A stretch of 64,000 bases of DNA from the IMG/VR virus record IMGVR_UViG_3300032770_000008. One strand, given 5' to 3'. Source of the DNA: an uncultured virus (IMG/VR IMGVR_UViG_3300032770_000008). Its lineage: Duplodnaviria > Heunggongvirae > Uroviricota > Caudoviricetes. Of the stretch, positions 4,364 through 64,000 are shown piece by piece. Position numbers and translations under genes: made by a program. Under the pieces are notes generated by a model. The model saw nothing but the letters and a program-made list of their open reading frames with translations. It was not told the DNA's origin and ran no database searches. How positions within the stretch are numbered: position 1 is the stretch's first letter; each line of letters starts with the position of its first letter.

Positions 4364-4617
4364 TCTGACGGACAAGAGCGTGCTGCGGCCGTCGATGATC
4401 GCCGGCGCCCGGATCGCCGCGGGACGCGGCGCCGAGCGGACGCATCGGCAGATCGGTCGCGAGCTCGAGCCGATCGCGCGATTTGGTTACGCGCTTTCGC
4501 TCGCGATCGCGATCTCGTTGCCGACGCACGAGCGACGCGCGAACGCGATCGCCAACGCGATCGTGCTCGCTGGCGCGCTCTTGGATGGCGAGACGATCTA
4601 CGAAGCGGCGTGATCGC

Positions 4618-9295: not shown

Positions 9296-10322
9296 CCCCG
9301 CGTCAGCACGATCATGGCGCCGAGCACGATCGCCGCGACGCCCTGCGCGACGACGAGCCAGCGCAGGAGGATCCGGATCACCGACTCGCGGCGCGGCCGC
9401 GGCGCCGTGACGGCGTCGTCATCCGGCGCGCCCTCGGCGCTCCACGCCGCGGTGTCGCTCGCGAGCTCCCGCGCATGCGCGTCGTGGCAGCGCGGACAGC
9501 GCGGCCGCTCGCCGAGGATCGTCGTGCCGCAGTCGATACAGCTCGTGACCGTCATGGAGTGGCGACCTCATATTTGGGATTGCGGCGGCCGCAGCGGTTC
9601 GGCGGGCGCGGGATAGGTGATAGGCCCGCGAAGCGGCGCTCGCCGCGCACGCATTCCCACACGAGCGTCTGCGATACGTCGAAGCGATCGGCGATCTCTT
9701 GCAGGGAGAGATCGCCGAGCGCGTAGAGCTCGCGGATACGCGCGATTGCGATGTCGTCGACCGGGGGAACCCAATCGGCGTGCGTGATGTAGAGCTGCGC
9801 GGTCGTGAGCAGGATGATCGTCGCGCCGACGCGGCCGATCTCGACGAATTTTCCCCGGACGCGGATCGGCGGGCGTTGTCGAAAGTTACCGACTCTCACC
9901 GCAACGCCTCCTGGGCCGCCGCGATGAAGCGGCGGAGCTCGCGCGGCGTGATCCACGCGCTGGCAGACGCGTCGGGGCTGCCCGTGATCGCGAGGTAGCT
10001 CGGTCCGCGGGGGCCGAAGTTCTCGAAGAGGATCTTGCGATTGGAGAGTGCGCGGATGCGACGCTTGACGCGGGGCTTGACCTTCACGCGGCCTCCGCCA
10101 GGCCGAGCCGATCCGCGCAGCCGTCATGGATCGCATGCCATGTGTGGATCTTCATCTCCCGGAGTACGCCGAGCACGGAGTGGCGGCGCTTCTGCCGGTA
10201 CCACCCGGGCCGATTCGGATCGGGCTGATCCCAGAGCATGCGCCGGGCTTCGGCGAAGCTCATGCCGAGCCGATGCTCCTCGTAGGTCGCGCCGCAGACA
10301 CATTGCGGCGGAGTTCGCTTCG

Positions 10323-18705: not shown

Positions 18706-19311
18706 TCACGCGTCCCTCCGCGCGAGCTTCGTCGTCTTCTGATCGAACACGTTGAGGCAGTCGCGCGGGACGATCTTGCCGGCGGCGACGAGCTCGCGGA
18801 TGAGCGCCGACAGCGTGCCGGCGTGGACGTCCTTGTACGATTGGGGATCGAACCCGCGCTCGCGCAGCTCGGCGGCGAGCTGCGCGGCGCGCTCGTCGTG
18901 GCCGCGATCGAGATCGACGACGATCTTGTTCTTGATCACGCCGCCGTTGCCGCCTTCCATGAGCCACGCGAACGCGCGTGCGCGCTTGTCGACGTGCTCG
19001 AGTCCAGGCAGCGAGGCGCGAATCTCGCGCTTGACGACGACCTCGATGCCCGAGCTCGTTGTGCACTTGTCGAGGCGCATTTTTTCGAGCAGCTCGGGGA
19101 TCTGGCGCTCGAGTAGATCGCGCTCGGCGTCCTTGGCCTTCTGGAGATCTTCCTCGGCGCGCTTGCGGCGCGCGATCGCGCGCTCGGCCAGGAGCGTGAG
19201 CCGATCGAGATCGGCGAAGGCTTGGGCGACGACGGCTCCATCCGGATCCGCGTCGCTCCCGAAGTCGAAGTCGTTTTCGGCGACGCCGGTGGCGTCATTG
19301 ACAGGTTGCAT
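18706..19311 (-). CDS. Conserved phage replication-module protein
   Basis: Coiled coil, then 'AFAWLMEGGNGGVIKN' and 'VHAGTLSALIRE' motifs seen in polA-phage modules. Confidence 0.55.
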   Translation of the reverse strand: MQPVNDATGVAENDFDFGSDADPDGAVVAQAFADLDRLTLLAERAIARRKRAEEDLQKAKDAERDLLERQIPELLEKMRLDKCTTSSGIEVVVKREIRASLPGLEHVDKRARAFAWLMEGGNGGVIKNKIVVDLDRGHDERAAQLAAELRERGFDPQSYKDVHAGTLSALIRELVAAGKIVPRDCLNVFDQKTTKLARRDA

Positions 19312-20263
19312 GCGATCGACGCTCGCACGCAGGTCTGACGGTGAGTCTCGGCGGTCAATCTGCCGAGCAGATGCAATCACAGAAGGACAGGTCATCGCAG
19401 GCGAAGTCGCCTTCTACGAAATCGTCGCGTGCGCCGTCAACGTCGAAACGAGCGCGATCGTCACAGCGCGCGATGACGCACGGACAGATCGTGTCGTGAT
19501 CGCACGCTGACGATTCGGATCTGTCCACAACGCGATTGCGGGGCGCGTCGTCGATCGATCCACAGGACGCACAAGTTGTCCACAGAACCCTTTGGCCTGC
19601 GGATCGCGCGAGATCGCGCGCGGCCTAACTTCGCCTGACCGAGATCGCGCGAGTGAGGCAGCGCTCGCACGTGATCGTCTCGTCCGCGCGCGCTGGCGCG
19701 TCGAGCTCGATCAAGTCGAGGCACTCAGCGCACCACGCGTAGCGCGCGCACGTCGCGCACGCATTCCACACCGCGCCGTGGACGCAGCGCGGTTGGGGGA
19801 CGTAGCTCGGTACGCGGCGGCGGGACACCGAGCGAGCGTAGTGGACCGGTGTGACAGTTACACGAACTAGATCCCGCGCGTCCACGGGCCGACGATCTGC
19901 GGCGCTTCCTCGCGGCGCACGGCGCGTACGACGCCCGACCACGGCCACTGCTTGACTCGGTGCCGGAACGACTCGAACACGAGCTCGCAGCCGCTGTCGC
20001 CGGCGAGCAGCGTGATCGGGGCCTTCTCGGTGATGATCGCGGTGAAGGAGGGGGCGCCGTCGATGCGGCGCGCGCCGGGCGCCTCCCAATCGACGCGCGG
20101 CATGCCGTTGTCGAGCGATGGGATCGCGTCGGCGAGGAGACGCTCGGCGAGCTTGAGCAGATCGGTAGCTTGTCCGTCGCGACGCAGTTGCTTGATGTAG
20201 GCGCGGGCGACGGCGAGCTCGGATTCGGTCATGATGGTGTCCTCTCTTCGTTGCGCTCGACCG

Positions 20264-30099: not shown

Positions 30100-31227
30100 C
30101 TAAATAACACGAGAGACTTTTCCTTCATCGTTGGATTGCTCCAACTCCAGAGCGCGCTGGCCGCGCGCGAGGACGTTGATCGCCGCGTTGTGGTCGCGAT
30201 CGATCATCAGTCCACAGTTTGGGCAGTCGTGAGTCCGATCGGCGAGTGTCTTATCGACGATCTCATCACACCGGCTGCACAACTTCGACGTGTTTCTGGG
30301 ATCGATCGGCACCAGATGCTTCCCAGCTTCTTCCGCTTTGGAAGCGAGGCACCGGAGGAGGAGTCCCCAGGACGCGTCGCAAAACGACTTCGCGAACATT
30401 CCGCGGGCGAGTCCGCGGACGTTCAGTTTCTCGTGGGCAATCAGGTCGAAGCGATCGACGATTTTCTTGGCCTCCTTCCGGGCGTGGTCGAGCCGCTGGT
30501 TGACGATCTTCGCGTGCGACTGCGCGACGAGGATCCGCGCGCGCTCACGATTCCGCGATCCTTTCTTCGCGCGAGCAAGTTGCCGCTGGCGATCGGCGAG
30601 CTCAGCCTCGGCGCGGCGAAGGAAACGATGATTTTCGATCTTCTCGCCGGTCGAGAGCGTCGCGAGCGCTTCGAGGCCGAGATCGATCCCGACGCTGGAC
30701 GTGATCGCGACCTTCGGCGGAGCGGGGCCGAGATCGCATTGGATCGTGACCCACCACTTCCCACAGGCGTCGCGCCGTACGATCGCGTTCTTGATCGTTC
30801 CCGTGATCGGTCGGTGGAGGTTCATCTTCACGTGGCCGAGCTTTGGGATGTGGACGCGATCTTTCTTGACCTTCACGGTGCCGAGGGCGAACGAATCGTA
30901 GCGTCGATGGGAGCGGAATCGCGGAAAGCCGGGCACCTCGCCCGATCGACAGCGCCGAAAGAACGCCTGGAAGGCGAGGTCGACGCGACGGAGAGCGGAT
31001 CGCTGGACTTCGACGGGCACGGCGGCCCAGGCCGGATCGGCACCGCGCAGCTCGGTGAGCTGCGCGGTTTGGTCGAAGCGTGTGATCGACTTCCGCTGCG
31101 ACTTCCAGGCAATGATCCGCTGCTCGAGGGCCGCGTTGCCGAGCGAGCAGCATTGCCGACGCCAGCCGTCGAGAACGCATTCTTGCGAAGTGTTTGGGTG
31201 GAGTCGGAACTTGAAAGAGCGCCGCAC
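30100..31227 (-). mobile_element. tnpB: IS200/IS605-family RNA-guided endonuclease TnpB, no adjacent tnpA (IS1341-like)
   Basis: N-terminal 'SFKFRLHP', RuvC-I 'GIDLG', RuvC-II 'IAHEKL', zinc finger CSRC/CPNC, RuvC-III 'DRDHNAAIN'. Confidence 0.93.
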
Positions 31228-40295: not shown

Positions 40296-40744
40296 AGCGA
40301 GATCCGCCGGAACGAGGCCGTCTCGCTGTAATAACCGTTGCTCGATCCGTACCAGCGGATCGTGACGTAGCCCTTGGCGGTCGCGAGTCGGTAGAACGTC
40401 CAGGTGAAGGAATCGGCGTACTCGTCTTTGGGAGAATCGGAGTTCGTGCTCTCCTCCGCCAGCGCGATCGGCGCGCCGACCAGATCTTCTAGATCGCCGA
40501 TGACATCCTCGATGGTGCACACCGCGCAGCAGTCTGGCTCGTAGTACATCTGCCAGCGCTCGCCCGTGACGGCCTCGAAGTCGATCGTCTCGTCGCCGTT
40601 TCGCGTGACCGACTTCATCGTTTTGCCGAGCAGCTCTTCTAGACCCGACAGCGGGGCGATCTGCGCGCGGAGTGCGGCGGCTTCGGCGGTTCGTCCCTCC
40701 AGTTCCGCATCTGCGGCGACTGCCTTGATGTCTTCGCGGTTCAT
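40292..40744 (-). CDS. Conserved phage hypothetical protein
   Basis: 'DCC....EDVIGDL.DL.G.PI..AEE...TWTFYRLAT.KG.V.IRW.G.SNGYYSE'. Confidence 0.65.
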   Translation of the reverse strand: MNREDIKAVAADAELEGRTAEAAALRAQIAPLSGLEELLGKTMKSVTRNGDETIDFEAVTGERWQMYYEPDCCAVCTIEDVIGDLEDLVGAPIALAEESTNSDSPKDEYADSFTWTFYRLATAKGYVTIRWYGSSNGYYSETASFRRISL

Positions 40745-43657: not shown

Positions 43658-43774
43658 GATTCCTTCATCCTCCTACCCGCGTGGGGCTACCTGGAAGACC
43701 TTGCGTTTCGCGTGCCGATGCTTCGTGTCCCAAGTAGTTGACGCGTCTGCCCGGGTAGCCGGATACCCGTGTCC

Positions 43775-43803
43775 GGGATACGTCAATCGTGTACGTACGT
43801 CAA
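43775..43803 (-). promoter_or_regulatory. Promoter-like TTGACG-N17-TATCCC with ACGTACGT motif
   Basis: Intergenic, upstream of the RuvA-CTD/ruvB operon. Confidence 0.45.
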
Positions 43804-49432: not shown

Positions 49433-49663
49433 TCACGACACGTTCGCCTTGAGTGCGTCGTCCTGGCGGATCCGCGCTTCGATCGTCGCGCGGATCCACT
49501 CGCTGAGCGTCACGTCCGCGCGGCGAGCTCGTTCTCGCCAATCGGTGTATTCGCGATCGCGCAGCCGCAGGTGAAGGACGCGGCGCCGGCGCGACGCCAA
49601 GATGCGTCCGGGGGGCTGCGGGACGGCGGCCTTCGCCGCCGGCGGGGGAACTTTTCGAGTCAT
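49433..49663 (-). CDS. Ribbon-helix-helix protein
   Basis: 'LHLRLRDREYTDWRERARRADVTLSEWIR'. Confidence 0.55.
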   Translation of the reverse strand: MTRKVPPPAAKAAVPQPPGRILASRRRRVLHLRLRDREYTDWRERARRADVTLSEWIRATIEARIRQDDALKANVS

Positions 49664-49781: not shown

Positions 49782-50777
49782 GTGTCGATGCCTCGCCCAG
49801 GATCCGGCTCCCTCGTTCACCGGCCGCGCGCCGCCGGCGGCGAGCTCGATGTCCCGCGCGCCGCGCAGGAGCATCCGGTCGTCGTCTATCTCGCTGGTCT
49901 CGCGCCCGACAGCCGGCCCGCGATGATGTCCGCGCTCAAGACGATGGCCGCGATGATCGATCAGCGTGCCGATGTCTACACGCTGCCGTGGCACGAGCTG
50001 CGCTTCCAGCACACGAAGGCGCTTCGCGCGAAGCTCGGTGAGGAGTACGCCGAGCGCACGGTCAATCGAATGCGTGCGGCTCTTCGCGGCGTGCTGAAGA
50101 TGGCGTGGAAGCTCGGCCAGATCTCGACGGACGATTACATGCACGCGATCGACTTCAAGGGCGAGAAGACGACCGGCCTCGAGCCAGCGGGGCGCGTCGT
50201 GCCGATCGAAGACGTGCGCCAGCTCTTCCGCGCCGCGCACAGCCGCCCCGATCCGATGAACCGGCGCGATCAGGCACTGCTCGTGGTGCTCTATGCCGGC
50301 GGACTTCGGCGCCAGGAGGCGAGCGCGCTTGATGTCGCGAACTACGATCCGACGGACGGTGGAATCCGCGTGCGCCGTGGCAAGGGCAACAAGTTCCGCG
50401 TGACCTACGTCGCCGAGGGCTATCGGCCGTGGATCCAACCATGGCTCGATTTTCAGAAGCGGCGCGCTTGCGAGCCGATGTTCGTGCGCTGGGATCGCGA
50501 CGACGGTCCGACGATGGATCGCCTGGGGCGTGCCGGCGTCGACGTGGTCCTTGGCGAGCTCGTAGAGCGCGCGCAGATCGCGCCCGTGACGCCGCACGAC
50601 CTGCGGCGATCGTTCGCGACTGATCTGCTCGAGCGCGGTGCCGATCTCATCACGGTGCAGCGCCTCATGGGTCACGCTGACGTGAAGACGACGGCGATCT
50701 ACGATCGACGCGGCGAGAAGACGAAGCGCGAGGCAGTCGAGAAGATGCCGATCGCGCTGCGCTACGAGGAAGCGTGA
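49782..50777 (+). CDS. Tyrosine recombinase / integrase
   Basis: Catalytic R (GLRRQE), K (GKGNK), HxxR (HDLRRS), H (MGH), Y (TTAIY). Confidence 0.92.
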   Translation: MSMPRPGSGSLVHRPRAAGGELDVPRAAQEHPVVVYLAGLAPDSRPAMMSALKTMAAMIDQRADVYTLPWHELRFQHTKALRAKLGEEYAERTVNRMRAALRGVLKMAWKLGQISTDDYMHAIDFKGEKTTGLEPAGRVVPIEDVRQLFRAAHSRPDPMNRRDQALLVVLYAGGLRRQEASALDVANYDPTDGGIRVRRGKGNKFRVTYVAEGYRPWIQPWLDFQKRRACEPMFVRWDRDDGPTMDRLGRAGVDVVLGELVERAQIAPVTPHDLRRSFATDLLERGADLITVQRLMGHADVKTTAIYDRRGEKTKREAVEKMPIALRYEEA

Positions 50778-51506
50778 GCTCGCTTGTCCCACCTCCACGC
50801 GTGCACACGCGCATTCTTCGGCACGTCTCCGATCGCGACGCGCTCCACCGCGATCGAAAGCTTCCGTTGCTCTTTCTTCGCCCACGGATCCCACAGCACG
50901 CGCCGCGACGTCTGGTGGATCGCCTCGACGCGGTACGCGTAGCGCGGCCGCACGGGGCTCATGAGGTAGTCGCCCGGCCGCGGCGGCGGGCCGAGCCAGC
51001 GCGCGCGGAGCGTCACGGCTGGGGCACTTCGCCGGCGGCGTCTTCCAGATACGCGATCCATCGCCGCAGCTGCCCGATCTCGGCCGCGCGCGCGGCGCTG
51101 CCGTCGTCTACCGCGTCGAGCTGGCGGAGCCGCGCGCTCAGGTACGCGCATAGCGAGGTCTCATTGGAAGCGCCGTCGTGCGGCGAGGGATTCTTGGCAG
51201 CACCGTCAACCTCGCTCACGATCGCGCGGGCGATCACGATGCTCGTCTCGGCGACGCCGTCTACGTCATCGCCCTCGAGCTCGTGCCAGTTGAGGCTGGC
51301 GACGAGCCCGCCGGCGATGTTCCCGGCCATGCGCAGGATCGCCGACCGATCTCGCGCTGCCAGGTGTTCGGTTTCAGCCCTTCGCGCGCCCGCCGCCGCG
51401 GTGACGTGATGATTTCGCAGATCGCGATAGTGGGCGGCGATGACATCTACGCCGTTGATCTTGATGATCTCGACGAGTTCGGCATCGGTCAGTGCGTGGA
51501 ATGCTT

Positions 51507-51734
51507 TCACGGGGTGCCTCCTGGCAATCGCGGGAACGGCACGAGCGTGCCGTCCGGCTGGATCACGTCGACCTTCTGCTCCGCCGCGGCGAGCTCGGCG
51601 GCGATCTCGCGGCCAAGCGCGACGCCGCGATCGTACTCGGCCAGGCTCTCCTCGAGCGAGAGCTTGCCGGACTCGATGCGCGCGGTGATCGCGCGGAGCT
51701 CGGACAGCTTGGCGGCGAGCGGCGACGCGCTCAA
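51507..51734 (-). CDS. xseB: Exodeoxyribonuclease VII small subunit
   Basis: 'L.EL..I...IESGKLSLEESLAEYDRGV.L......L..AEQKV' XseB signature. Confidence 0.8.
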   Translation of the reverse strand: MSASPLAAKLSELRAITARIESGKLSLEESLAEYDRGVALGREIAAELAAAEQKVDVIQPDGTLVPFPRLPGGTP

Positions 51735-52058
51735 TCGATCACCTCATCGAGCGGCGGCCACTCGCCGTTCAGGGTGCGCTGCTTCCGCAGCTCGTGATAG
51801 CACGTGGTCTCGATCATCCGATCGCCGTCGGGCGGCACGATCTCGACGACGGCCGGTTTCTCCTCGATCGTCTCGACGTGGCGCTCGTCGTAGCTCTGGG
51901 GCCACGCCGTACCCTGCGCGAAGATCGCGCGCGCCTCGGCCTCGGTCGCGGCCTTGATCGTTCGCTCGTAGACGACGCGGACGACGCGCTCGACGCCGAT
52001 CTTGAATCGCGGCAGCGGGTAGCAGCGATCGCAGTCGTCGTTACCGCACGGCTCGCGA

Positions 52059-52526
52059 TCACGCACGGACCACGCTCGCGATCATGCCGCGCACCGCGGC
52101 GAGCTTGGCTTCGAGCCCCTCGCGCGTCCGCGGCAGGCGGACGCAGTTGTGCTTCCGCAAGATCGCGCGGACGCGCCGCCGGGCGCTCGGATCGTCCAGG
52201 TGCATCATCGTCTCGTAATCGGTCTCCTCGCCCTCGCGTCGGGCGATATCGCGCCGTCCGCAGGCGATGAGCAGCCGGCGCGAGACGGACATCGCGGCCA
52301 GCTCGCGACAACATAGTTCATGCGTTTTCGGACTGTCGAGCTCGCCGTTATCGTCGAGTCCGAACATCGGCAGGCCGATCCACTCGGGCGGTACGGTCAG
52401 GAGATGCCCCAGCTCGTGCGCCGGCCACCACAGGGCTCCGTCGGAGGGCCACGCTCTCGGGTGGCGCGACGCGACGGGGACGTAGCGACGGTACAAGAGG
52501 GAGAGATCGCGGAGCGTGAGCTTCAT
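52059..52526 (-). CDS. Putative zinc metallopeptidase-like protein
   Basis: HELGH motif with downstream E ('CRELAA'). Confidence 0.45.
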   Translation of the reverse strand: MKLTLRDLSLLYRRYVPVASRHPRAWPSDGALWWPAHELGHLLTVPPEWIGLPMFGLDDNGELDSPKTHELCCRELAAMSVSRRLLIACGRRDIARREGEETDYETMMHLDDPSARRRVRAILRKHNCVRLPRTREGLEAKLAAVRGMIASVVRA

Positions 52527-54131
52527 CCGATCACCGCCCCGACACGCCGGAAGTAGCGTCCGAAGCCGCCGCGTACCACGTCGACGCGATCGCGCGGCCG
52601 CGCCAGGCGACGAAGGGCGACGATCACGCAGATCGCGGCGAAGGCGCCGATCGAGAACGGAACGATCAGGCTGAGCGGGTTGTTATCGCCCACCGTGCGC
52701 CCGCGCCTTCCGCGCCTCGCGGATCGCGTTGATCGACTCTCGCGTGAGCGAGAGCTCGACACGCGCACCAGGCAGTAGCGTGCCCCGCGGCACGACGCTC
52801 TTGAGCCCGTCTACGATCAAATCGACGATCTGTTTGTCATCGAGGAATGGGATGCCGTCGCGATCGTCATCGATCAGGACGAGGTAATCGAGCTTGACGC
52901 GGGCGACGCGCTTCATCGAAACCTCGAGCTCTCGCGCAACAGGCACCACCAACCGGTCAGTGCGGTGCACCAACCCATCGACGCGTTCGTATGTGCGCCT
53001 GCGAGACTTGCGACGAAGACTGTCAAACACAAGATCACCTGACATCGAAGCAGGTACACGCCGATCGGTTTCATCGTCCCTCCATCGTGATGGCCCAGCG
53101 CTTGGCGATGTCGTTCACCTGCTCTCGATCGTCCTCGTCGTCGAGGACCCCGTGGCACGCGAGTACGAGGCGGAGTAGCCACGCGACGTCGCGGCGCGCC
53201 TGCTCGGTGGTTGGCAGTTTCGATTTCCGCTTGGTCATCGCGTCTCCATGTGAGCAATCGCGTCGATCCGCCGCCGCCGCTCCGCGACCGCCTCCGGCGC
53301 GTAACGGCCGACGCGTCGCTGCTCCTGGCAGGTGAGGCACAGCCGGACGTGCCGGCGCTGCCCCTTCCACCGATACGCCACGATCCCGCTGCACGCGCGG
53401 CAGACGTCGTCGCCGCAGCCCCAGCACGTGACGATCGAGCTCGCCGCCGCACCCTGGCCGGGGGCGGCCTCGCAGTCGATCGAGTCGACGACCGAGCAGG
53501 ATCGATCCGTCATCGTGGTCCGTATCGCGCCGGTCTTCTCCAGCACGTGCTGGCAGTCCATCGCAGCGGTCACAAGATCGCTCCGATCAAGAGCAGCGGC
53601 CAGATCGCCGCGACGAAGAGTCCGATCGCGAGCGCGCTCATCTTCGGCGACTTGAAGTAGCCGCGGCCGTCCGTGCGCATGAGGAGAGGTTCCTCCGTGA
53701 AGATTTCGATCGCCGCGACGCAGCTACCGAAGAAGATCGAGAGGCCGATGTAGATGCAGAGCCAGATCATTTCGCGGCCTCCAGTCTCGCGCGAAGATCC
53801 TCGCGCTCACCCTCGTCGTTCCACAGCCGCTCGAACGCCTCCGCGCCCGCCTCGTCGGCGCACTCGCGGCCGAAGAAGTAGAACTCGCGCGCGAGCGCCT
53901 TCACGTCGCTTAGCGTGCGCGGCGGATCGCGGAACACCTCTTCTGGCGATCGCGGCTGGCGCTTGAGCGGAATCGTCGAGCCCTCGGCGCCGTGCTTGTG
54001 CGGGCACGGGCACGCGTTCAAGACGAACTTGATCGGCTGCTTGTCGCCCGAGTAGCAGACGCCACCGTAGTCGTGCGCGTGGTGGTGGCCGCACGCCGCG
54101 CAAAGCCGCTCACATAGGCGCGCCGACTGCG

Positions 54132-54986
54132 TCACGGCATCCCTCGGACGAGGTGCATCGCCGCGACGCCGAACGCGGCCGTCAGGCCCGCGTCCGGGCG
54201 GCCGTCGCTCGCGTCGCCGAACGGATTCTTGTAGCGGAGAAAACCGAGGTCGACCCACCGCCCGTCCTTCGTCGGCTGGAGCACGGTCGCCTCGTTCCGC
54301 AGCCACGGCTCGCGGTGCTCGAGAATGAGCTTGGCGGCGAGCACTTCTTCTTCGCCGGGCACGGTCCAGTCGTGGAAGTGAAGGACACAGCGATCGTCGA
54401 CGTCGTAGCAGATCTTGCCGAGCTTGACGGCGGTGTCCGAGTGGCGGTGCGCGATCAGGTAGCGATGACCGGAGAGACCGCCGCGGACCATGATCGCGCG
54501 GTGCCTGGCCCAGTCGGCGTGCTCCTCGGGCGTAAGGAACGAGAGCAAGACCTCGCTGGCCATGTCCACGCTCCCCGGTACGCACTCCGGGCAGCACGGC
54601 GTCGGACGCGCGACGGACGCGGCCTTCGATCGTCGCCTGCCCTTCTTCGCCTCGGCCGCGATCGTCTCGATCGCGCCGGTCTCGGCGATCTCGAGCTTGC
54701 CGTCCTCGAACTTGACGGCGGTCAGCGTGCGATCGGCGGGCTTGGCGAGCTTGACGAGCACCGGACCGACGTCCTCGACCGGCGCCGCGATCGAGATCGT
54801 CTGCTGGCGATCGTCGCCGAGCTCGGCAGCGGTCCACTTCTTCTTCTTCGCCTGCGCGAGGAAGCGGCCTAGGACGTCGCGCTCGTGCGGCGTCGGATCG
54901 GTGACGACGAGCTCGCATGTGTCGTCACCAGCGGCGACGAGGCGGAAGTCCCCGTTCCACGCGGGAAAAAACCAGGCGTCGATCAC
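54132..54986 (-). CDS. Hypothetical phage protein
   Basis: 284-aa ORF, normal composition, coupled to neighbours. Confidence 0.55.
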   Translation of the reverse strand: MIDAWFFPAWNGDFRLVAAGDDTCELVVTDPTPHERDVLGRFLAQAKKKKWTAAELGDDRQQTISIAAPVEDVGPVLVKLAKPADRTLTAVKFEDGKLEIAETGAIETIAAEAKKGRRRSKAASVARPTPCCPECVPGSVDMASEVLLSFLTPEEHADWARHRAIMVRGGLSGHRYLIAHRHSDTAVKLGKICYDVDDRCVLHFHDWTVPGEEEVLAAKLILEHREPWLRNEATVLQPTKDGRWVDLGFLRYKNPFGDASDGRPDAGLTAAFGVAAMHLVRGMP

Positions 54987-55756
54987 GAGTCACTCTCCAT
55001 GAGCGCCCGGACGGTCTCCTCGGAGATCTGGCCGCCGCCAGTCACGGCGTCGGGCAGCTGGTCGAGCTCCTCGACAAGGCCGTCGAGCCGCGACTCGGCC
55101 GGCGCCGCCGTAACGCCTCGCCGCCGCGCGATCGCCGCGTCCCATCCGGCCTGGTACGCCGGCGTCCTGGCGCTCGCGGCGACGACGGCGCAGCCGTCCA
55201 CCAGGTCGCGGTCGAAGTTGTCTTGCTGGGATCCGTCGAGGAAGCCGTGCTCGAAGCTGCCCCTCACGACCTCGACGCGCGCGATCTCGTCCGCCGTGGT
55301 GGCCGCCGGGACCTCGAAGCGCGTGCCGACGAGGCGCCGCTCGAGCTCGCGAGCGACGTCGTGCAGCCCGCGATCGTGGGCGTCGGCGATCGCGGCGACG
55401 AGCTTCTGCGGGTCGCCGCCGAACATCTTTGGCGCCAGCGCGAGCAGCTCGCGCAGGATCCGCGCGCCGAACGTCTCCGCCTGCTGGGCCAGGGCCGCGC
55501 TCGCTGCGCCGGGGAGGCCCACGGTGTCGGGATTGAGTCCCATCGGCGCCGCGAGCGACTCCATCGCGCCGCCGACGTCTGCGATCACCTGCTGGACATC
55601 GCCGACGCTCTTGGCGAGCGTGGTGAGCAAGTCCTTGGCGGCGATCGCGACGTCGTAGAGGCGGCGCGCGGTCGCGATGTCGAACGGCTTGCCGCCGTTG
55701 TCCAAGATGTCGCGCAGCTCAGCGCGGAGGGCCTCGGCGATTCGTTCGGTGGTCAT
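54983..55756 (-). CDS. Hypothetical phage protein
   Basis: ATG at 55756 with RBS gaaggaaggac. Confidence 0.55.
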   Translation of the reverse strand: MTTERIAEALRAELRDILDNGGKPFDIATARRLYDVAIAAKDLLTTLAKSVGDVQQVIADVGGAMESLAAPMGLNPDTVGLPGAASAALAQQAETFGARILRELLALAPKMFGGDPQKLVAAIADAHDRGLHDVARELERRLVGTRFEVPAATTADEIARVEVVRGSFEHGFLDGSQQDNFDRDLVDGCAVVAASARTPAYQAGWDAAIARRRGVTAAPAESRLDGLVEELDQLPDAVTGGGQISEETVRALMESDS

Positions 55757-56760
55757 GGTCGTCCTTCCTTCGTAGCCGCGCCGGTTGAGATCCTGGCGCC
55801 AGTAGGTTTTCGCGAGCACGCCGAGCATGCTCAGTTCCGCCACAAGATCGAGCTCGGCGCGATGCCGCGGACACCGCGCGCGCGGATCCGCCACGTGCCG
55901 CCCTGCAACGCGATGTGCGCTTCCATGTAGGCCATCGCGGCCTCGAACGTTCCGGTATTGTACTGCTCGCCCCAGCGATCGCGCCGCGTGAGGGCCGTCT
56001 TGACGAGCTTCTCGACGACGAAGCGGCCGCGCGCGCCGCGGGTGGCTGGATTGTGTCGACTCACGATAGTCCCTCCGCGATCGCGCGAACCACGCCGGCA
56101 ACCTCGGAGATGGGCTCCGCTCGATCATAGGCGCTCTCGTCGAGATCGCCGTTGCCCGCGATCACCGTCGCGCGCTTGTCGAGTCGATCAGCGAGGCGCG
56201 CGAGCACCTCGGCGATCTCTCGGCGCACTTGCGCGCGTGTAGCTCGATCTTCGTCGCTCACAGCTTCACGAACCTTCCGTCGCACAGCCGGTGCAACCAC
56301 GGGAACCCAACGACGATCGCGTGATCGTAATACGGCCGCTTGCAAAGCTTGCAGGCGACGTCGCCGCTCGCGCGCTGCCAGTCGGCCGCCTCGACGCGCG
56401 CGAGGTCGATCTTGTTGGGCCGGGACAGCTCGACGATCGCGCGAGCGAACGAGACGATCGTGTCGAGGGTGCGATCACCGTCCGGCAGCACCGCGACGTC
56501 GCCGGCAGTGATGCGGCGGGCGTACTCGATCGCGGTGCGCGTCGCGTCGGTCACGTCTCCTCCGCGCGCTCGGTGATCCGCAGCGCGACGACCTTGCCAT
56601 TCCCGGCCCTGATGGCGGCGTCGAGTCCGCACGGGAAGCACATGTTGAGGAGCATCTTCGCGCGTTCGTCTGACGCGCCGGCGCGGACCTGGATCATCGA
56701 CGGGAACGCCCCCGGGCGCTCGGCGTTTTCCCAGCCATAATGCGTGCTCTAGTTTCTCGC

Positions 56761-57039
56761 TCACGCGCGCCTCCGCTTCGCGTGGTGCCGGTAGTACGCG
56801 GCGCGATCGTAACGAATGCCGACACGCTCGAGCGCGTCGAAGAACTTGTCCTGCCACTGCCCCGCCAGCGTCGGTGCTCCGCCGGCGCGCAGCGCGGTCA
56901 GGTTGATCACGAGGCCCGGGGCGGACTGCTTCAAGTAGCGAAGCGCGAAGTCGACGCACGAGGCGAGCTCCGTCGCGGCCGCGCGTAGCTCCTGGTACTC
57001 GGCCTCGGTGTGCTTCTTCTTCGGCGGCTTCTTCTTCAT
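56761..57039 (-). CDS. Hypothetical protein, paralogue of 59084..59533
   Basis: 'AA.ELA.CVDF.LR..K...WQ..FFDAL...G..YDRA.YY'. Confidence 0.6.
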   Translation of the reverse strand: MKKKPPKKKHTEAEYQELRAAATELASCVDFALRYLKQSAPGLVINLTALRAGGAPTLAGQWQDKFFDALERVGIRYDRAAYYRHHAKRRRA

Positions 57040-58914
57040 CGCCTGTCCTCCTGAACCGCGAGTGCCGCATCGGTGAGCCGATCGAGCTCGTCCTCCGCGC
57101 GCTCCCACTCCTCGCAGAGCGACACACATTCGGGGAGGCCGTCTCCGCGATCGTGCGCGGCATCGAACGCGAGATCCTTGCGCCGCCGATCGAGCGCGGC
57201 CTCGTAGATCGGTCGCATGCGCTCACACTCGGCGTGTAGCGCACCGGCGTCGCCACGGACCTCGTTCTGTTCGATCACCACGGGCAGACGATCTTGTAGC
57301 TCCGCGACCTCGTCACGCTCGACAAGCCGTCTAACCTGCTCCGCAAGCGCGACGTCAAACGCGTCGAGCCGAATCCGCGCGTCGCGCAACATCTTCACCT
57401 CGTCGAGCAGCCGGATCGCATCCAACGATGTGAAGCGATCTGGTCCAGTGGCCAGCGACGTACACTCCTCGCGATACCACGCGTCGGCAAGCGCCCGCAG
57501 ATGAGCGATCTCATCGTCGGTCAGTAAGGCGATGGTGCTCATCGCGGCTCCTTCGCTTCGACAGCACGGCGAACTCGCGCCGCCGCGTCCGCGTGTGCGG
57601 CGTTGGTGACGAGTCTCAGCTGCTCCCGTTTTTCTCCCAGCGCGCACCGCACGTCGTGCCCGTCGATCGCGGGGCACTCGTCGTACTTCTCGCAGGCCGC
57701 CTGCCCGAGAGCCATCGCCGCCACGAACACCGGTCGCATGCGCGCGATCTCGGCATGCAGCCGCTCGATCTCGCGCTGCGCGGTTCCGTCGCCGACCGCG
57801 AACGTACCATCGAGCACCGCGGCCATCCGCTCGTCAGCAGCGATAACGTCCGCGCGCAGTTTCTCGGCCTCGGCGCGCAGGGTGTCGCGCTCGGCCTTCA
57901 ACGTCTCGCGAATGCGCTCGGCGAGATCGCCGGGCTCGGTTGGACCGTTGAGGAGTCGCTCTCGCAACCTCTGCACCTCGTCGAGCAGCCGAGGCACCGA
58001 GTCGCGAGATATCTCCTTCGCCGCGAGACCGGCGCCGTCGCGGTGATGCTTGTACGAATCGGCCAAGAACTTCGCTCGCGCCGCGATCTGCAGCAGCTCG
58101 TCGTCGGTCAGCCCGCTCATCGCGGCCCCTTCGACTCGGCGAGCGCGGCGTCGACGGCATAGCGAAGGTAGTTGACGCAGGGACCACGCACCTTGATCTC
58201 GCCGACGCGATCCTCGTCGCTTGCGTCACGTATCGCCTCAAGGACCGGCCGCATGCGCTCGTTCTCGGCGCGCAGGGCGTCGCGCTCGGCGATCACCGGT
58301 CCGATCGCACCGTCCTCCAAGATCTTTCGCTCGTCCCGCCGGAGCTGCTCGTAGTCCATGAGCGGCCCGTGATCGATCGCGCCAGGTCCCAGATCGGCGG
58401 CCGCGTGCACGCGCCGGAGGTTGGCGAAGACGACGCCCGTGCGATCGACGACCTCGACGAGTGCGCCGGCGAAGCGCGCGGCCCCGTTGTCGAACTCGGA
58501 TTCGCTGAGACCTCCCGCCGCGAGGAACTCGCGCGCGCCCTCGATCGTACGCTGGAGCTCGGTCATGGCGCGTTGCTTATCGCGCCGCGGCGCACACCAC
58601 GCCTCGGCGAACGCGAGGCTGTCGCGCGCGTCGATTTCGTCGAGCATCTCGCGCAGCGCGTGGGGAACGTCCTCCCCATCTTCGCGGATGATCTTTTCGA
58701 TCCCGGACCGGAGCTCCTCGGCCTCCCCGCCGTGGATCGCGCCCGCGTGCTTGCCGCACGGCAGACCCACGACGCAGCGGCCGGCGATCTGAACGAGTGC
58801 CTCGGCACACTTGACCGCCCACTCGGACGTCGCGCGCTTGTTCATGTGCCCGTCGGGCAGCGCGACGAGCTCGCCCGCCTCTTCGATCGTCTGCTGGAGA
58901 TCGTCGTCCGTCAT
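57036..58914 (-). CDS. Three tandem coiled-coil Ead/Ea22-like proteins (57036-57542, 57539-58120, 58117-58914)
   Basis: Shared 'TDD(E/D)', 'LLDEV'/'MLDEI' and '(E/A)RMRP(I/V)' motifs. Confidence 0.5.
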
Positions 58915-59083
58915 CGTGGCGCGATCTCCCGCAGGTACCGCAGGCAGCGGTAGATGTTCGGCAACTGCACCGCGAGCGCCGGCGGCAACGCCGCGATCGC
59001 AGTGATGTGCTTCTGCACGATCGCGATCGCCTCGTCGATGTCGCGTGCGGAGGGCGGCTGCCCCGTCTTGTCGTCGAATTCGA

Positions 59084-59533
59084 TCACGACGCGCGCCCCC
59101 GCTTCTTCTTGCCGAGACTCGCGTAGTATCCGGCGCGGTCGTACTCGACGCCGAGCAGCGCCAGCGCGTCGAAGAAGTCCTCCTGCCAGCGGCGCACCGA
59201 CGTCGGCTTCCCGGCCCTCATCGCGGCGAGGTCGATCATCATGCCGGATCCGCCGAGGTGCTTGTAGTGGCGCAGCGTGAAGTCGACGCACCGGGCGAGC
59301 TCGAGCGCGGCCGCCTTCCAATCGATCGCGTCGTCCGGCGTCGCCGCGAGGATCGCGGCGATCTTGGCCAGGGTCCGCACGGCCGTGTTGCTCTGGCTGC
59401 GCTTCGGATCTTGGTGCGCGTCGAGCCGGGCGGCGATCCGCGGCCAGTCGAACATCGAGCTGCCGACCGCCGCGCGGATCTCGCGGAGCGGAGACGGCGC
59501 GGGCGACGGGGGTTGCTTCGTCGCGGTCTTCAC
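59084..59533 (-). CDS. Hypothetical protein, paralogue of 56761..57039
   Basis: Shared motifs with 56761..57039. Confidence 0.6.
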   Translation of the reverse strand: MKTATKQPPSPAPSPLREIRAAVGSSMFDWPRIAARLDAHQDPKRSQSNTAVRTLAKIAAILAATPDDAIDWKAAALELARCVDFTLRHYKHLGGSGMMIDLAAMRAGKPTSVRRWQEDFFDALALLGVEYDRAGYYASLGKKKRGRAS

Positions 59534-59974
59534 GACGCGGGTCCCTTGTCGACGGTGAGCTCGCCGCGCGCGGTGCGTCGCACGCACTCCCACAACATGA
59601 TCGTCATCTGGAGGAAGTTGTCCGGCGCCTCCGCGGCGGTCGGATCGACCTCGATGTAATTGGTGAGCGCGATCTTGCGCTGTCCCTCGTCGGTCTCGAT
59701 CCACATCTCCTTGATTCGCATTTAGGTCCCCTCGCGCATGCGCGCGTAGAGCGCCGCGCGCTCCTTGTCGGTCAGCTTGCTCGTCAGCCGCGCGATCGCG
59801 CCGTCGGTCGCCGACTCGATGAGTTGCGCCACGTACGTAGTGACCAGCTCGATCCGGCGCTCGCGCGCGTCGTCTCCGCGCGTCGCGACGATCTCGTCGA
59901 CGATCCGCGCGGCGAGATCTCGGATCCGTAGCTGCCGATCCATGGTAGCGTCGCCTCGCTTGATCGCCTGAGAA

Positions 59975-60241
59975 TCAAGTTTTGTGTTTCTGTTCATACT
60001 TGCTCGGTGAGTCAACTGCCGAGACACGACGGCCTCCGCTTGCTGTTGTCAAAGGCAGCTCGGCCTGATCGCCACCGACGACGGGCGGAACGGGCGCCGC
60101 GGGCGGGACCGCGGCGGCGTTGCCGAGCGCTCGGATCCAATCCGCGATCGGCTGCGCGCTCCGCCGCGCGGCGCGCTTCCAGTTCGCGAACTCGCGCGCC
60201 GTGAGCCGGATCTGAAAGGGGTGAGATCTCTTCGCGGGCAC
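59975..60241 (-). CDS. Ribbon-helix-helix protein divergent from the cas operon
   Basis: 'FQIRLTAREFANWKRAARRSAQPIADWIR'. Confidence 0.55.
   Translation of the reverse strand: MPAKRSHPFQIRLTAREFANWKRAARRSAQPIADWIRALGNAAAVPPAAPVPPVVGGDQAELPLTTASGGRRVSAVDSPSKYEQKHKT
59990..60025 (+). repeat. Orphan variant CRISPR repeat
   Basis: CTGTTCATACTTGCTCGGTGAGTCAACTGCCGAGAC shares TGCTCGG and ACTGCCGAGAC with the array repeat at the same offsets. Confidence 0.7.
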
Positions 60242-60249
60242 GTCATTCG

Positions 60250-60278
60250 CTCTTAGCGCGACGTAATTACGTTGTCAA
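60250..60278 (-). promoter_or_regulatory. Promoter TTGACA-N17-TAAGAG with 12-bp palindromic operator ACGTAATTACGT
   Basis: Palindrome 60261-60272 lies in the spacer; the RHH start follows at 60241. Confidence 0.55.
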
Positions 60279-60313
60279 TCTCCGAATGATCATGCTATGA
60301 GAGATCTCTACCC

Positions 60314-60556
60314 GTGATTTCAGCCTTCCTTTTCCAGGGCACGCTCCACGCCGTCCACGTCGTCGCTCGTTCCGGGCTCACCAAGATCGCGGTGACCGCG
60401 CTGTGCGCGGCCGCCGGCGACGCCGGCGACGGGATCTACCAGGTGCCGACGTGGGCGTTCGACGGCCGCACTTCCTACGCGACCGCGACGGCGTGCGGTG
60501 AATGTGGCAAGCGGCTGCGCGCCATGATGACGGCGCCGAAGGGAGATGGATCGTGA
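60314..60556 (+). CDS. Small hypothetical protein upstream of the Cas effector
   Basis: 80-aa ORF with H, C and CxxC residues. Confidence 0.35.
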   Translation: MISAFLFQGTLHAVHVVARSGLTKIAVTALCAAAGDAGDGIYQVPTWAFDGRTSYATATACGECGKRLRAMMTAPKGDGS

Positions 60557-60627
60557 ACGAGACCTACGGGTCGATCGCGATCTGGCTCGTCATCATCGAA
60601 CTCTGTTTCCGCTGATCAAAGGATCCC

Positions 60628-62595
60628 ATGAAGCGCAAGACCTCCGACGTCCCGACCCGGATCTACTCCTACCGCTGCCTGCCGCCTCTCACCGAGGCCG
60701 CACGCGTCGAGGATCAGTTCCGTCTCGCTCACCAGTACAAAAACGCGCTCGTCAAGATCGAGCTCGACCTGCGCGAGCGGTTTCGCGACGTCCAGCTCAC
60801 GGTGCCCCAGGTAGCGGCGGCTCTCTTGGCCTACGAGGACGCCGACGCGGCCGTCGAGAGCGCGATCGAAGATCTGCGCGCGGCCAAATCGGGCACGGCC
60901 AACCCCGATCTCGCCGCTCACCGGCTGCGGCTCGAGGCGGCCAAGGAGCTCCGCGCGCTGCGCGGAAGCGAGCTCCGCGACGCCAAGCGCGATCACGACG
61001 AGGTGTTGCGGCCCGGATACGAGGACGCCCGGAAAGGGGCGCACGCCGAAATGCTCGCGGCCCGCGCCGACTTCTCGCGCCGCGGCCTACGCCACGGCAC
61101 GTACGTGCGGATCGAGGACGCCGTCCAGCAGGCCGCGCGATCGACGAAGCGGCCCCTGCACTTTGAGCGCTACGACGGATCCGGCTCGATCGGCACGCAG
61201 CTCGTCGGCCGCGATGGACCCGAGGGCGTCCGCGGCCTGACGCTCTCCGAGCTGCACTCGTGCGTGGACACACGGCTGCGCGTGGCGGCGCTGCCGTGCG
61301 CCGGCGATGTCGTCGCGATGCCCCCGTGGGGCGGATTCGGCTCGGAAGACGTCTTCTGGAACATGCGTCGCGGCGATCGCCGGCGCGCGGCACGCGTGCA
61401 CATGTGGCTGCGCGTTGGGAGCAATCCCGATCGGTCGCCGATCTTCGCGGAGTTTCCGATCACGATGCACCGCCCGCTGCCGAAGGACGCGATCATCAAG
61501 TGGGCGTACGTCGTGCGCAAGAGGATCGGCCCGCACCTCGAGTGGCGGTTCCAGGTCACGATCGAGAGCAAGACGTTCTGCGCGCCGACCGCCGCGTTCG
61601 GCGAGGGCACCTGCGCGATCGACCTGGGCTGGCGCTGGAAGCTCGACGACGAGGGACAGTCCGTCGCGCTGCGCGCCGGCTATCTCGTCGACGACCAGGG
61701 GCGCGAGCGCGAGCTCGTCGTGCCCGAGAAGCTGTGGCGGCAGATGCCCAAGGTGTACGACCTCGCGAAAATCCGCGACCAAAACCTCGAGCGCGCGCAG
61801 CTGGCGCTCTCCGAATGGATCGCCGATCGGGGCGAGATCCCGCCAGAGTGGCAGGCCGCCGAGGAAGACGGTCGACCGAGCATGGCGGATCGGCTGCGGG
61901 GCTACGCGCAGTGGCGCGCGGCGCGCAAGCTCCAGGCATTCGTCGATCGCTGGACCGAGCGCCGGGTGCCCGGCGACGCGGCGATCTACGACCAGATCCA
62001 GGCGTGGGCGCGGCAAGATCGCCACCTCCAGGCGTGGAGCGAGCACCAGCGCGACCGGCTGATCGCGCACCGGCGCGAGGTGTGGCGCGTGATCGCCGCC
62101 GAGATCGCGCGGACGTACTCGACGATCCTGATCGAGGACGGCCGCAACGCGAACCAGACGATGCGCCTGCCGGAGATCGAGGGCTGGGAGCGGCCCGCGC
62201 CCGAAGACGGCGATCCGTCGGACGGGCGCGACCAGCGGCGGACGAACCGCCTGGTCGCCCCCGGCGAGCTCCGCGACGCGATCGTCAAGGCGGCCCACAA
62301 GACCGGCGCGAAGATCGAAGTCGAGCGCAGCGCGGGAACGACGAAGGAATGCGCGCGCTGCGGCCACACGCAGGAGCACGTCGACTTCCGCGCGCAGATC
62401 ACGTATCGCTGCGAGGGCTGCGGGGCGATCGACGATCAGGACGCCAACGCGTGCCGGAACCTGCTCAAGCGACACGGGATCGCGGGCGGCCCGGTGCCGC
62501 CGCGCGCGCCCAAGGTGCTCGCGCCGGCGAAGAGGCCGCCGGAGCTCGGCAATCACGGAGCGTCACACGCGGCAGAGACGTTCGCCGCGCCGTAG
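60628..62595 (+). CDS. cas12m: Type V CRISPR effector, Cas12m (V-U1)-like
   Basis: Motifs colinear with Cas12m as recalled: 'QFRLAHQYKNALV', long coiled-coil REC, 'RYDGSGSIGTQL', 'PITMHRPLP', RuvC-I 'AIDLGWR', RuvC-II 'ILIEDG', 'APGELR', zinc finger CARC/CEGC, RuvC-III 'DQDANA'; CRISPR array 63 nt downstream. Confidence 0.85.
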   Translation: MKRKTSDVPTRIYSYRCLPPLTEAARVEDQFRLAHQYKNALVKIELDLRERFRDVQLTVPQVAAALLAYEDADAAVESAIEDLRAAKSGTANPDLAAHRLRLEAAKELRALRGSELRDAKRDHDEVLRPGYEDARKGAHAEMLAARADFSRRGLRHGTYVRIEDAVQQAARSTKRPLHFERYDGSGSIGTQLVGRDGPEGVRGLTLSELHSCVDTRLRVAALPCAGDVVAMPPWGGFGSEDVFWNMRRGDRRRAARVHMWLRVGSNPDRSPIFAEFPITMHRPLPKDAIIKWAYVVRKRIGPHLEWRFQVTIESKTFCAPTAAFGEGTCAIDLGWRWKLDDEGQSVALRAGYLVDDQGRERELVVPEKLWRQMPKVYDLAKIRDQNLERAQLALSEWIADRGEIPPEWQAAEEDGRPSMADRLRGYAQWRAARKLQAFVDRWTERRVPGDAAIYDQIQAWARQDRHLQAWSEHQRDRLIAHRREVWRVIAAEIARTYSTILIEDGRNANQTMRLPEIEGWERPAPEDGDPSDGRDQRRTNRLVAPGELRDAIVKAAHKTGAKIEVERSAGTTKECARCGHTQEHVDFRAQITYRCEGCGAIDDQDANACRNLLKRHGIAGGPVPPRAPKVLAPAKRPPELGNHGASHAAETFAAP

Positions 62596-62658
62596 CGCGG
62601 CAGGTGCTCGCGATCGGAGCTGTATGATCGCGGCGTGACAACTGAATAGGATACTACT

Positions 62659-63495
62659 GTGATCGTGACTGCTCGGCAGGCTGACTGCCGAGACAAGGTG
62701 ATGGCGTTCGCCGTGGAGGTCAACTTCCGCGAGTGATCGTGACTGCTCGGCAGGCTGACTGCCGAGACCGGCGAACTGCTCGGGCGCCGCGTACGCTGGC
62801 GTTCGTGATCGTGACTGCTCGGCAGGCTGACTGCCGAGACGCATCGATGGTTCCGGTGTCGCGAAGCAGGAGCAAGGTGATCGTGACTGCTCGGCAGGCT
62901 GACTGCCGAGACTCCAGTTTCGCGTTGCTGACGCCCGTGGCGACGAAGCCGTGATCGTGACTGCTCGGCAGGCTGACTGCCGAGACTATCCTGGCCGAAC
63001 GGGCGGCCCTCGTATCGATCCCGTGATCGTGACTGCTCGGCAGGCTGACTGCCGAGACAAACACCAAGCTGGCTAGAATTCGATTCTTAGGGGCGTGATC
63101 GTGACTGCTCGGCAGGCTGACTGCCGAGACTTCGGCGGCTTCGCGGCAAGGTCCCTGGCCGCTTTCGGTGATCGTGACTGCTCGGCAGGCTGACTGCCGA
63201 GACGGCGATCCATGTTAGCGCACGGTCGACGAGCCCAGGCGTGATCGTGACTGCTCGGCAGGCTGACTGCCGAGACGCAAGAACGGCTTGCCGCGCCGCG
63301 GGGTCTCGGCGGCGAGTGATCGTGACTGCTCGGCAGGCTGACTGCCGAGACCCCTGGGGACCCTCGAGCACAAGAACCGTGTCGAGTGATCGTGACTGCT
63401 CGGCAGGCTGACTGCCGAGACGCGTCTTGGAGGGGTAGGAATCCTCGTCGAGAGACATTGTGATCGTGACTGCTCGGCAGGCTGACTGCCGAGAC
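62659..63495 (+). CRISPR. CRISPR array: 12 identical 36-nt repeats GTGATCGTGACTGCTCGGCAGGCTGACTGCCGAGAC and 11 spacers of 34-39 nt
   Basis: Repeats start at 62659, 62733, 62805, 62877, 62951, 63023, 63095, 63168, 63241, 63316, 63386, 63460; 8-bp hairpin CTCGGCAG/CTGCCGAG plus AC at the 3' end. Confidence 0.98.
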
Positions 63496-63710
63496 TTGCC
63501 AGGTCCGTCGCCCCCGTTCTCGGCGAGCTGACTGCCGAAACCGGCCGCCGGCCGTGCGTGTGGTGCTCATGATCGTACTTGTTCGGTGAGTTGATCGCCG
63601 AGACAGTGGGACCTTCCGCAGATCGTAGTTGCTCGGCGAACTGACTGCCGAGACGCAGAGTGGTCGATTGCACGTAAATCGCACTTGCTCGGCGTATTGA
63701 CTGCCGAGAC
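63496..63710 (+). CRISPR. Trailer of four variant repeats with short spacers
   Basis: Variant repeats end at 63541, 63604, 63654 and 63710; spacers between them are 27, 14 and 20 nt. Confidence 0.8.
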
Positions 63711-64000
63711 CCGAGCTGGCGAACGTTTTTCGCTAGTCCTACGCGATCGCGTCCTGGCCGTGCAGCCAGAGCGATCGCACGTACTCGCTCGGCCAGCCGG
63801 CGAGGATCATCTCCCAGCACGCGCGTATCCGATCGTAGTACGCCTGCGCCGCATTCTCCTCGCGCGCCGTGCGGGGGCGCGACAGCCACGGTTCGGCGCG
63901 GTGCTCCACAATCGCGAGCTCATCGCTCGAGCGGAGCTCGATCCGATCGCGGCCGCGCAAGAGCGGGACGATGTCGATCGTCACCGGGCCTCGACGAGCG

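Follow-up and report, generated by a model that had tools for sequence, protein, structure and literature searches.

Outside of the CRISPR array of an uncultured virus, and on the far side of its cas gene, a 36-nt sequence resembling the array repeat stands by itself at positions 59990–60025 (+). This raises the question of whether the sequence is a true copy of the repeat and, if so, whether it serves at present as a guide, a regulator or a decoy, or is a relic. An earlier note on this DNA proposed a delocalised single crRNA-like unit (autoregulatory or decoy) or a remnant marking the left boundary of an acquired CRISPR cassette. The sequence (termed orphan 1) was analyzed within the window, i.e. 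the whole 64,000-nt stretch of DNA that contains it, and by comparison with related loci.

The type V-M locus

The window has a GC content of 66% and displays a phage-like replication and early region. Its genes include those for a family A DNA polymerase, a DUF5906/VapE-like primase-helicase, an SNF2 helicase and RuvB, and in addition for a C5 methylase, an integrase, and Pam3 gp33- and gp34-like proteins. A compact CRISPR locus forms the right end of the window, with the gene order RHH gene, orf80, cas12m and array.

The effector gene (cas12m, positions 60628–62595 (+), 655 aa) encodes Cas12m, the type V-M effector. The translated sequence gives full-length matches to solved structures (23vw_A, E-value = 3.9e-59; Cas12m2 8hio, E-value = 1e-25; GoCas12m 8pm4, E-value = 2.9e-25) and carries a Cas12f1-like TNB zinc ribbon (Pfam PF07282). 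At the RuvC positions that align with His317/Asp485/Asp579 of Cas12m2, the residues are D, E and D. Published Cas12m proteins with several RuvC configurations are reported to bind DNA without cutting (PMC11013384).

Cas12m is followed by a 62-nt leader (positions 62597–62658 (+)) that is conserved in relatives. The canonical part of the array (62659–63495 (+)) consists of 12 identical 36-nt repeats and 11 spacers of 34–39 nt, and the trailer part (63506–63710 (+)) has four degenerate repeats, which start at 63506, 63569, 63619 and 63675. The spacers at the trailer end are shortened to 10, 27, 14 and 20 nt, and the trailer end (63496–63710) displays deletional decay. In the trailer repeat at 63569 the eight-pair stem is maintained by compensating changes in both arms.

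The RHH-like regulator gene is located at 59975–60241 (-), and orf80, a small open reading frame without a known family, lies at 60314–60556 (+) between it and cas12m. With the exception of one doubtful call, all genes from about position 51000 to 60241 run leftward; the gene that follows the RHH gene in this operon (59722–59943 (-), 73 aa) has no family. Two other open reading frames of the operon, 56761–57129 (-) and 59084–59704 (-), share a similar C-terminal region in their translations; they are paralogues with no function assigned. The base composition of the RHH–cas12m–array block does not differ from its surroundings, and no Rfam match was found in 59400–63800.

The 72-bp gap between the RHH gene and the divergent orf80/cas12m contains a perfect 12-bp palindrome (60261–60272), which overlaps TTGACA-like hexamers on both strands and is a candidate operator of the RHH protein. 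The same phage carries an IS605-type TnpB gene (OrfB_IS605 plus TNB domain) at 30100–31227 (-). It also has a second NikA-like RHH gene (49433–49663 (-)), divergent from a tyrosine integrase gene (49782–50777 (+)); this pair suggests a temperate phage or another integrating element.

Orphan 1 as a repeat

The 36 letters quoted in the earlier note are found at 59990–60025 (+), in the same orientation as the array (62659–63710). A stretch of 602 nt separates them from the beginning of cas12m at 60628, in agreement with the distance of about 600 bp given there. Orphan 1 is identical to the canonical repeat at 24 of 36 positions and to the trailer repeats at 63569, 63619, 63675 and 63506 at 28, 27, 25 and 22 positions, respectively. 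The two highest values bear out the statement that it is closer to the trailer variants than to the canonical repeat.

As a control for chance matches, 100 first-order Markov sequences of window length were compared on either strand, without gaps, with the five distinct array repeats. The best matches were 22 (2 sequences), 23 (55), 24 (35), 25 (6) and 26 (2); none of the 100 sequences reached 27 or more. Because the null sequences reach 24–26, the identity of 24/36 with the canonical repeat is not significant alone, and the case rests on the trailer variants.

Profile searches give the same result. A profile built from the array repeats only scores orphan 1 at 21.7 bits (E-value = 1.2e-5), compared with 7.7 bits (E-value = 0.38) for the highest-scoring unrelated site of the window. 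With a profile of 13 repeats from different loci the score is 18.9 bits (E-value = 9.8e-5). A covariance model built from these 13 repeats with an eight-pair stem aligns orphan 1 over its full length (1–36) with 29.4 bits (E-value = 7.5e-6); on the same scale the canonical repeat has 48.6 bits, the trailer repeats 40, 27.6, 22.8 and 13.7 bits, and a second solitary repeat (orphan 2, see below) 38.5 bits.

A minus-strand orientation of orphan 1 was considered and rejected, as nhmmer and cmsearch both place the matches on the + strand only. A possible partial second repeat at 60065–60077 (9/13 identity, 39-nt spacing, empirical p ~0.012) was also rejected, since its bases encode the GGDQ motif that is present in all three RHH homologues described below. 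Apart from this rejected candidate there is no neighboring repeat at spacer distance, and orphan 1 stands alone.

Orphan 1 is thus a true solitary copy of the resident type V-M array repeat, of the older, trailer-type generation. The part of the earlier proposal that describes a delocalised single unit of the array, of the old type, is supported by this likeness. The placement at a left edge is also correct, as orphan 1 is situated at the outer left edge of the block formed by the RHH gene, orf80, cas12m and the array.

The end of the RHH gene

Orphan 1 was described as antisense to the 3′ end of an RHH gene, and this is confirmed for the open reading frame at 59975–60241 (-), which has 88 codons. 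The family match of this reading frame is NikA-like but is below the Pfam cut-off (E-value = 0.0066, 17 bits vs a cut-off of 27). The last 16 codons (60025–59978) are a read-through across the repeat and beyond.

Three RHH homologues in the protein collection (P0121–P0123) have a 64%–77% identity to the window protein and a chain length of 72–76 aa. They align through the proline-rich tail to a common GDQ-ELPL stretch, and their ends correspond to residues 70–74 of the window protein. In a tblastn search, P0121 was aligned from 60241 down to exactly 60026. Codon 73 of the window reading frame is the first codon that comes from the repeat, read backwards, and opens a run of 16 codons up to the stop at 59975–59977. 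Since the homologues end where the repeat begins, the single repeat occupies the natural end of the RHH gene, where it has taken the place of the stop codon.

The same alignments bear on the supposed guide, the 39 nt that follow the repeat (60026–60064 (+), termed the pseudo-spacer), which are the antisense of RHH codons 60–72. The 20 letters given for a potential guide do follow the repeat as quoted. They are native RHH coding sequence read backwards and not an acquired spacer, because the homologues align through this region and end where the repeat starts. The GC content at third codon positions of the RHH reading frame is 0.8–1.0 and drops to about 0.5 in the tail; as the homologues align through that region, the drop does not mark a boundary of foreign DNA before 60026.

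Fold and decay

Orphan 1 is identical to the working repeat in the seven bases before the stem, the first five stem bases and the last 11 bases. All seven columns that are invariant among the 13 family repeats are kept. Six of nine near-invariant columns are kept as well, with two of the three near-invariant loop bases (columns 24–26) lost. Loop columns 24 and 25, each with a conservation of at least 90% among the 13 family repeats, are changed only in orphan 1 among the seven repeat forms of the window.

The basal stem has six pairs in register (five Watson-Crick pairs and one G-U pair) and the 3′ tail is intact. Stem pairs 6–8 consist of the G-U pair, a shifted pair and a mismatch, and the stem therefore falls short of eight pairs. 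The predicted fold energy is −8.8 kcal/mol vs −15.9 kcal/mol for the canonical repeat, and 39 of 200 shuffled sequences fold equally well. The statement that the hairpin still pairs thus holds for the six basal pairs; the pairing is weak, at a level that shuffled sequences match, and the upper stem is gone.

In the available text on the Cas12m2 structure, the loop contributes bases that brace the scaffold, the final base is recognized in a base-specific manner and the first seven bases are disordered (PMC10442227). By analogy, orphan 1 would retain part of the functionally important scaffold and would have lost another part.

Leader and expression signals

A profile of the leader only, built from 13 loci, finds the leader of the window at 62597–62658 (E-value = 6.8e-15) and gives no match near 59920–59989 or upstream of either orphan. 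A remnant consisting of the leader with the first repeat was a candidate origin for orphan 1 and was rejected by this search. The leader is strongly conserved across the window and 12 loci despite protein identities of 44%–63%, and more so than the 5′ parts of the repeats. It consists of a GC-rich hairpin and then a 14-nt A-rich motif that ends 11 nt before the first repeat.

A scan for consensus promoters in 59600–60700 on both strands found nothing, not even for the RHH gene and cas12m, and is thus uninformative for orphan 1. Because the surrounding genes run leftward, rightward transcription through orphan 1 would need a promoter of its own.

Searches for targets of the pseudo-spacer

The earlier note suggested a search for PAM-adjacent matches to the 15–20 nt downstream of the repeat. 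Anchored searches (12 nt with at most one mismatch, 16 with at most three, 20 with at most five) gave no match on either strand of the region that contains the cas12m and RHH promoters (60242–60627). One mid-spacer 8-mer is shared with that region, which is approximately chance level (by an eye reading and a rough hand estimate). The best match in the window is 12/13 at 26218 (-) and does not extend. The autoregulatory proposal of the earlier note is not supported, given the lack of a PAM-proximal match in 60242–60627 and the origin of the guide as native RHH sequence.

When the pseudo-spacer was searched by blastn-short in the window and in the 19 related loci, the self-match was the only one returned. 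The spacers of the array itself likewise have no match in this set, except for a weak one of 19/20 (95% over 20 nt) in locus L005. Two exact matches to the initial 18 nt of the pseudo-spacer are present in IMG/VR; they diverge after 18–19 nt and their flanks are not T- or C-rich. A blastn search with the 39 nt against GenBank phages and plasmids gave nothing better than an E-value of 6.

Other solitary repeats in the window and in relatives

A second solitary repeat, orphan 2, is found in the window at 19345–19380 (-). It has a 29/36 identity to the canonical repeat, an E-value of 2.1e-6 with the array profile and 38.5 bits with the covariance model. It is better preserved than orphan 1, with all 16 conserved family columns kept. 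Orphan 2 has the same orientation as a Pam3 gp33-like gene (18706–19311, PF23984), the likely start of which follows about 33 nt later. Weak covariance matches were also seen at 43737–43779 (+), between two rightward genes (17.8 bits, E-value = 0.009), and at 40328–40366 (+) (13.8 bits, E-value = 0.1); these may be very decayed repeats or chance hairpins.

For a comparison with relatives, an alignment of 47 Cas12m homologues was used to collect 18 metagenome loci and one viral locus, with identities of 44%–63%. Thirteen of the related loci include 1 kb or more of DNA upstream of cas12m, and in none of them does a + strand repeat occur in the 1 kb ahead of the gene, a weak test as the relatives are distant. 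A repeat at 23/36 or better before cas12m is absent from all 14 related loci with a defined repeat. The lack of conservation at this position is weak evidence, given the protein identities above.

Closer relatives were not found in the collections searched. A blastn search of 58900–60640 against GenBank phages detected no close phage relative, and the two flanking proteins gave partial matches of 33%–42% or none in IMG/VR. Scans with the single Cas12m protein yielded no close relative, and the genome collection yielded none even with the homologue alignment. A search of IMG/VR for the repeat-handle pattern returned five single matches, four of them without likeness in the 5′ part and one with an E-value of 3e-4, as would be expected by chance. 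The 95-kb record of L019 has no lone repeat at three or fewer mismatches in 27.

Repeat-like units outside of arrays (E-value <0.01) are present in four of the 19 loci (L004, L006, L008 and L010), in addition to the two in the window. The small RHH-like gene of L006 diverges from cas12m, and a lone repeat (872–837 (-)) starts on the stop codon of this gene. A second lone repeat (741–706 (-)) precedes the next gene, 131 nt further on. The two share the orientation of the RHH-like gene and are inverted relative to the array.

The cas12m gene of L006 itself, an intact open reading frame of 715 codons, contains two in-frame repeat-like units, at 1822–1857 and 2731–2766 (+), each of which is translated as an LARS-x-DDRD peptide. 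The unit at 2731–2766 is followed by a 19-nt direct duplication (18/19 identity, 2771–2789 and 2798–2816). The first of the two sites is shared with L004, where it is in a decayed form (8845–8876). From these sequences, the effector message of L006 may carry its own handle.

L004 has in addition a lone unit of a foreign repeat flavor 4 kb upstream. L008 and L010 are near-duplicates on contigs of >200 kb and show one lone repeat-like unit right after cas12m (9907–9934 (+) and 10484–10457 (-), respectively) and no array within 8 kb. A single-guide or an array-less V-M locus is possible in these two cases. L002 has a second array of about 90 units directly upstream of cas12m (48–7870 (+)), with the usual array downstream. 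The 36-nt repeat of the second array belongs to a different family but likewise has a hairpin plus GAC at its end.

In seven of the 13 loci with upstream DNA, a small RHH-like gene is found next to cas12m; four of these genes are sub-threshold NikA-like and three have no Pfam match. For plasmid type IV and V-M loci, a figure legend of a review (PMC11656645) names a transcription regulator as one of the genes.

Origin and possible function of orphan 1

Orphan 1 appears to be a decaying by-product of the scattering of single repeats; it would have little activity today, if any, and would not be an autoregulatory guide. We give this reading a probability of about one half. An older-generation repeat unit of the phage's own type V-M system would have arrived at the natural end of the RHH gene. 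Its arrival would have removed the RHH stop codon, so that the open reading frame runs 16 codons further through the reversed repeat. Decay is seen in the loss of the upper stem and of two conserved loop bases out of three, while the base of the stem and the 3′ tail remain. Whatever process distributes single repeats among elements of this Cas12m clade, orphan 1 would be one of its by-products and now inert or nearly so.

The absence of an array-type leader, the position antisense to an operon and a native flank without a target are the reasons for reading orphan 1 as a by-product that is probably silent at present. Decay is supported by the covariance score of 29.4 bits, which is within the range of the decayed trailer repeats (13.7–40), by the weak fold and by the changes in loop columns 24–25. 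The scattering process is supported by the lone units in four of 19 loci and by the two in the window. The missing conservation of orphan 1 in the distant relatives is weak evidence for the same reading. Two points go against a relic. The seven invariant columns are intact, and so are the seven bases ahead of the stem and the 11 at the 3′ end, so that Cas12m may still bind orphan 1. A random relic is also questioned by L006, where a lone repeat at the end of a regulator gene beside cas12m recurs, although the L006 repeat is in the sense of the regulator and orphan 1 is antisense.

In a second reading, which we consider possible but doubtful, orphan 1 would be a working lone guide, or would give rise to a Cas12m-capped antisense RNA that lowers RHH expression. 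A local rightward promoter in the AT-richer 46-nt gap at 59944–59989 would produce an RNA with the handle first, and Cas12m would use the next 17–20 nt, native RHH antisense, as the guide. The carrier would be spared, with the repeat's own end standing in the place of the PAM, and binding and silencing would affect close kin phages in which the same RHH gene end lacks the repeat (superinfection exclusion). The intact handle positions (the invariant columns, six basal pairs and the 3′ tail) fit such a function, as does the recurrence of lone repeats in this Cas12m clade, with orphan 2 of the same phage fully kept. Cas12m is also reported to be guided by a single short crRNA, to process its own precursor and to bind DNA without cutting (PMC11013384, PMC10442227). 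Against this, orphan 1 lacks its upper stem and two near-invariant loop bases, no leader-like sequence or consensus promoter was found, and the unit is antisense to a long leftward operon. Searches of IMG/VR and GenBank phages also yielded no kin target, nor a close relative of this phage, and the RHH homologues differ at the protein level in the seed region.

A broader form of this idea is that lone Cas12m repeats are planted on purpose beside native genes. The adjoining sequence would become the guide, the end of the repeat would replace the PAM and protect the carrier, and Cas12m would silence close kin lacking the repeat; orphan 1 could alternatively yield a Cas12m-capped antisense RNA acting on the cas12m regulator. 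Orphan 2 would be a fresh unit of this kind and orphan 1 an ageing one. We hold this to be unlikely.

Two further readings, both from the earlier note in some form, are less probable still. A decoy or sponge RNA would titrate Cas12m of the phage or of a competitor without guiding it, in the manner of RNA anti-CRISPRs. Solitary repeat units of viruses are described as acting in this way (PMC10651486), and degenerate handles could form dead-end complexes, but orphan 1 matches the phage's own array. The missing consensus promoter also counts against a decoy, though none was found for any gene of the region. A recombination scar marking a mobile RHH–cas12m–array cassette is about equally improbable. 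Its appeal is in the geometry, as old-type repeats in direct orientation, left and right, bracket 59990–63710 between two leftward genes; RHH-like genes adjoin cas12m in seven of 13 loci, and L002 has its second array directly before cas12m. The composition of the block is not distinct, however, and the left repeats of L006 are inverted relative to the array.

An autoregulatory crRNA-like RNA of the crlRNA/CreR type, which would guide Cas12m to the cas12m or RHH promoter by partial complementarity, is hardly credible here: the role would suit a binding-only effector, standalone repeat-like sequences are reported beside cas12a in about a third to half of V-A loci (PMC10120712) and mini-arrays targeting cas promoters are described as common (PMC10120712; 10.1101/2023.03.10.532045), but 60242–60627 has no anchored match on either strand, there is no second repeat (the match at 60065 being conserved GGDQ coding sequence) and the unit is not conserved in relatives.

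On the reading as a scattered by-product, orphan 1 alone is a minor, decaying element, and its value is as a further example of lone Cas12m repeats. Such V-M repeats are found in phage-borne and other elements at the ends of regulator genes, before the starts of genes and, in one relative, in frame within cas12m. No description of scattered lone repeats for type V-M was found among the Cas12m papers listed; the terms "orphan" and "autoregulat" do not occur in PMC11013384. Loading of lone units onto Cas12m would, if it occurs, provide a binding-only effector with fixed guides derived from native sequence. Kin exclusion or self-regulation could then take place by a new route.

Comparison with known systems

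The crlRNA/CreR units (PMC10120712; 10.1101/2023.03.10.532045) are the first systems to be compared. Like these, orphan 1 is a single degenerate repeat in a cas locus, upstream of and co-oriented with a type V effector gene. In the available text, units of this type are proposed to be derived from the terminal unit of an array (PMC10120712; 10.1101/2023.03.10.532045). Orphan 1 differs in that its flank does not partially match a cas promoter, a second repeat is absent and the unit is not conserved in related loci. It also overlaps a gene end on the other strand and belongs to subtype V-M, which the available text of the survey mentions once, in a different context (PMC10120712).

Racr (Camara-Wilpert et al. 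2023, PMC10651486) is likewise a lone CRISPR repeat in a phage genome. Unlike Racr as described there, orphan 1 copies the phage's own array, and the effector is also phage-encoded.

The Cas12m2 crRNA scaffold (Omura et al. 2023, PMC10442227) has in common with orphan 1 a 36-nt repeat, a stem adjacent to the guide and a two-base 3′ tail ending in C; its 5′ part is reported to be disordered (PMC10442227). The effector of the window is a homologue of the Cas12m proteins characterized biochemically (Bigelyte et al. 2024, PMC11013384). Phage Cas12m was found reported only in a 2026 preprint on myxophages (10.64898/2026.09.14.751636), the available text of which makes no mention of lone repeats. 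Unlike Cas12m2, the effector of the window has D-E-D at the RuvC positions, not H-D-D, and is phage-borne. Unlike the Cas12m2 scaffold, orphan 1 lacks some of the loop bases that are conserved in the family.

The terminal repeats of CRISPR arrays are degenerate and display the same kind of decay as orphan 1. Orphan 1 is set apart from them by its location, 2.6 kb from the array and on the far side of cas12m, but its nearest sequence relatives are the trailer repeats of this same array.
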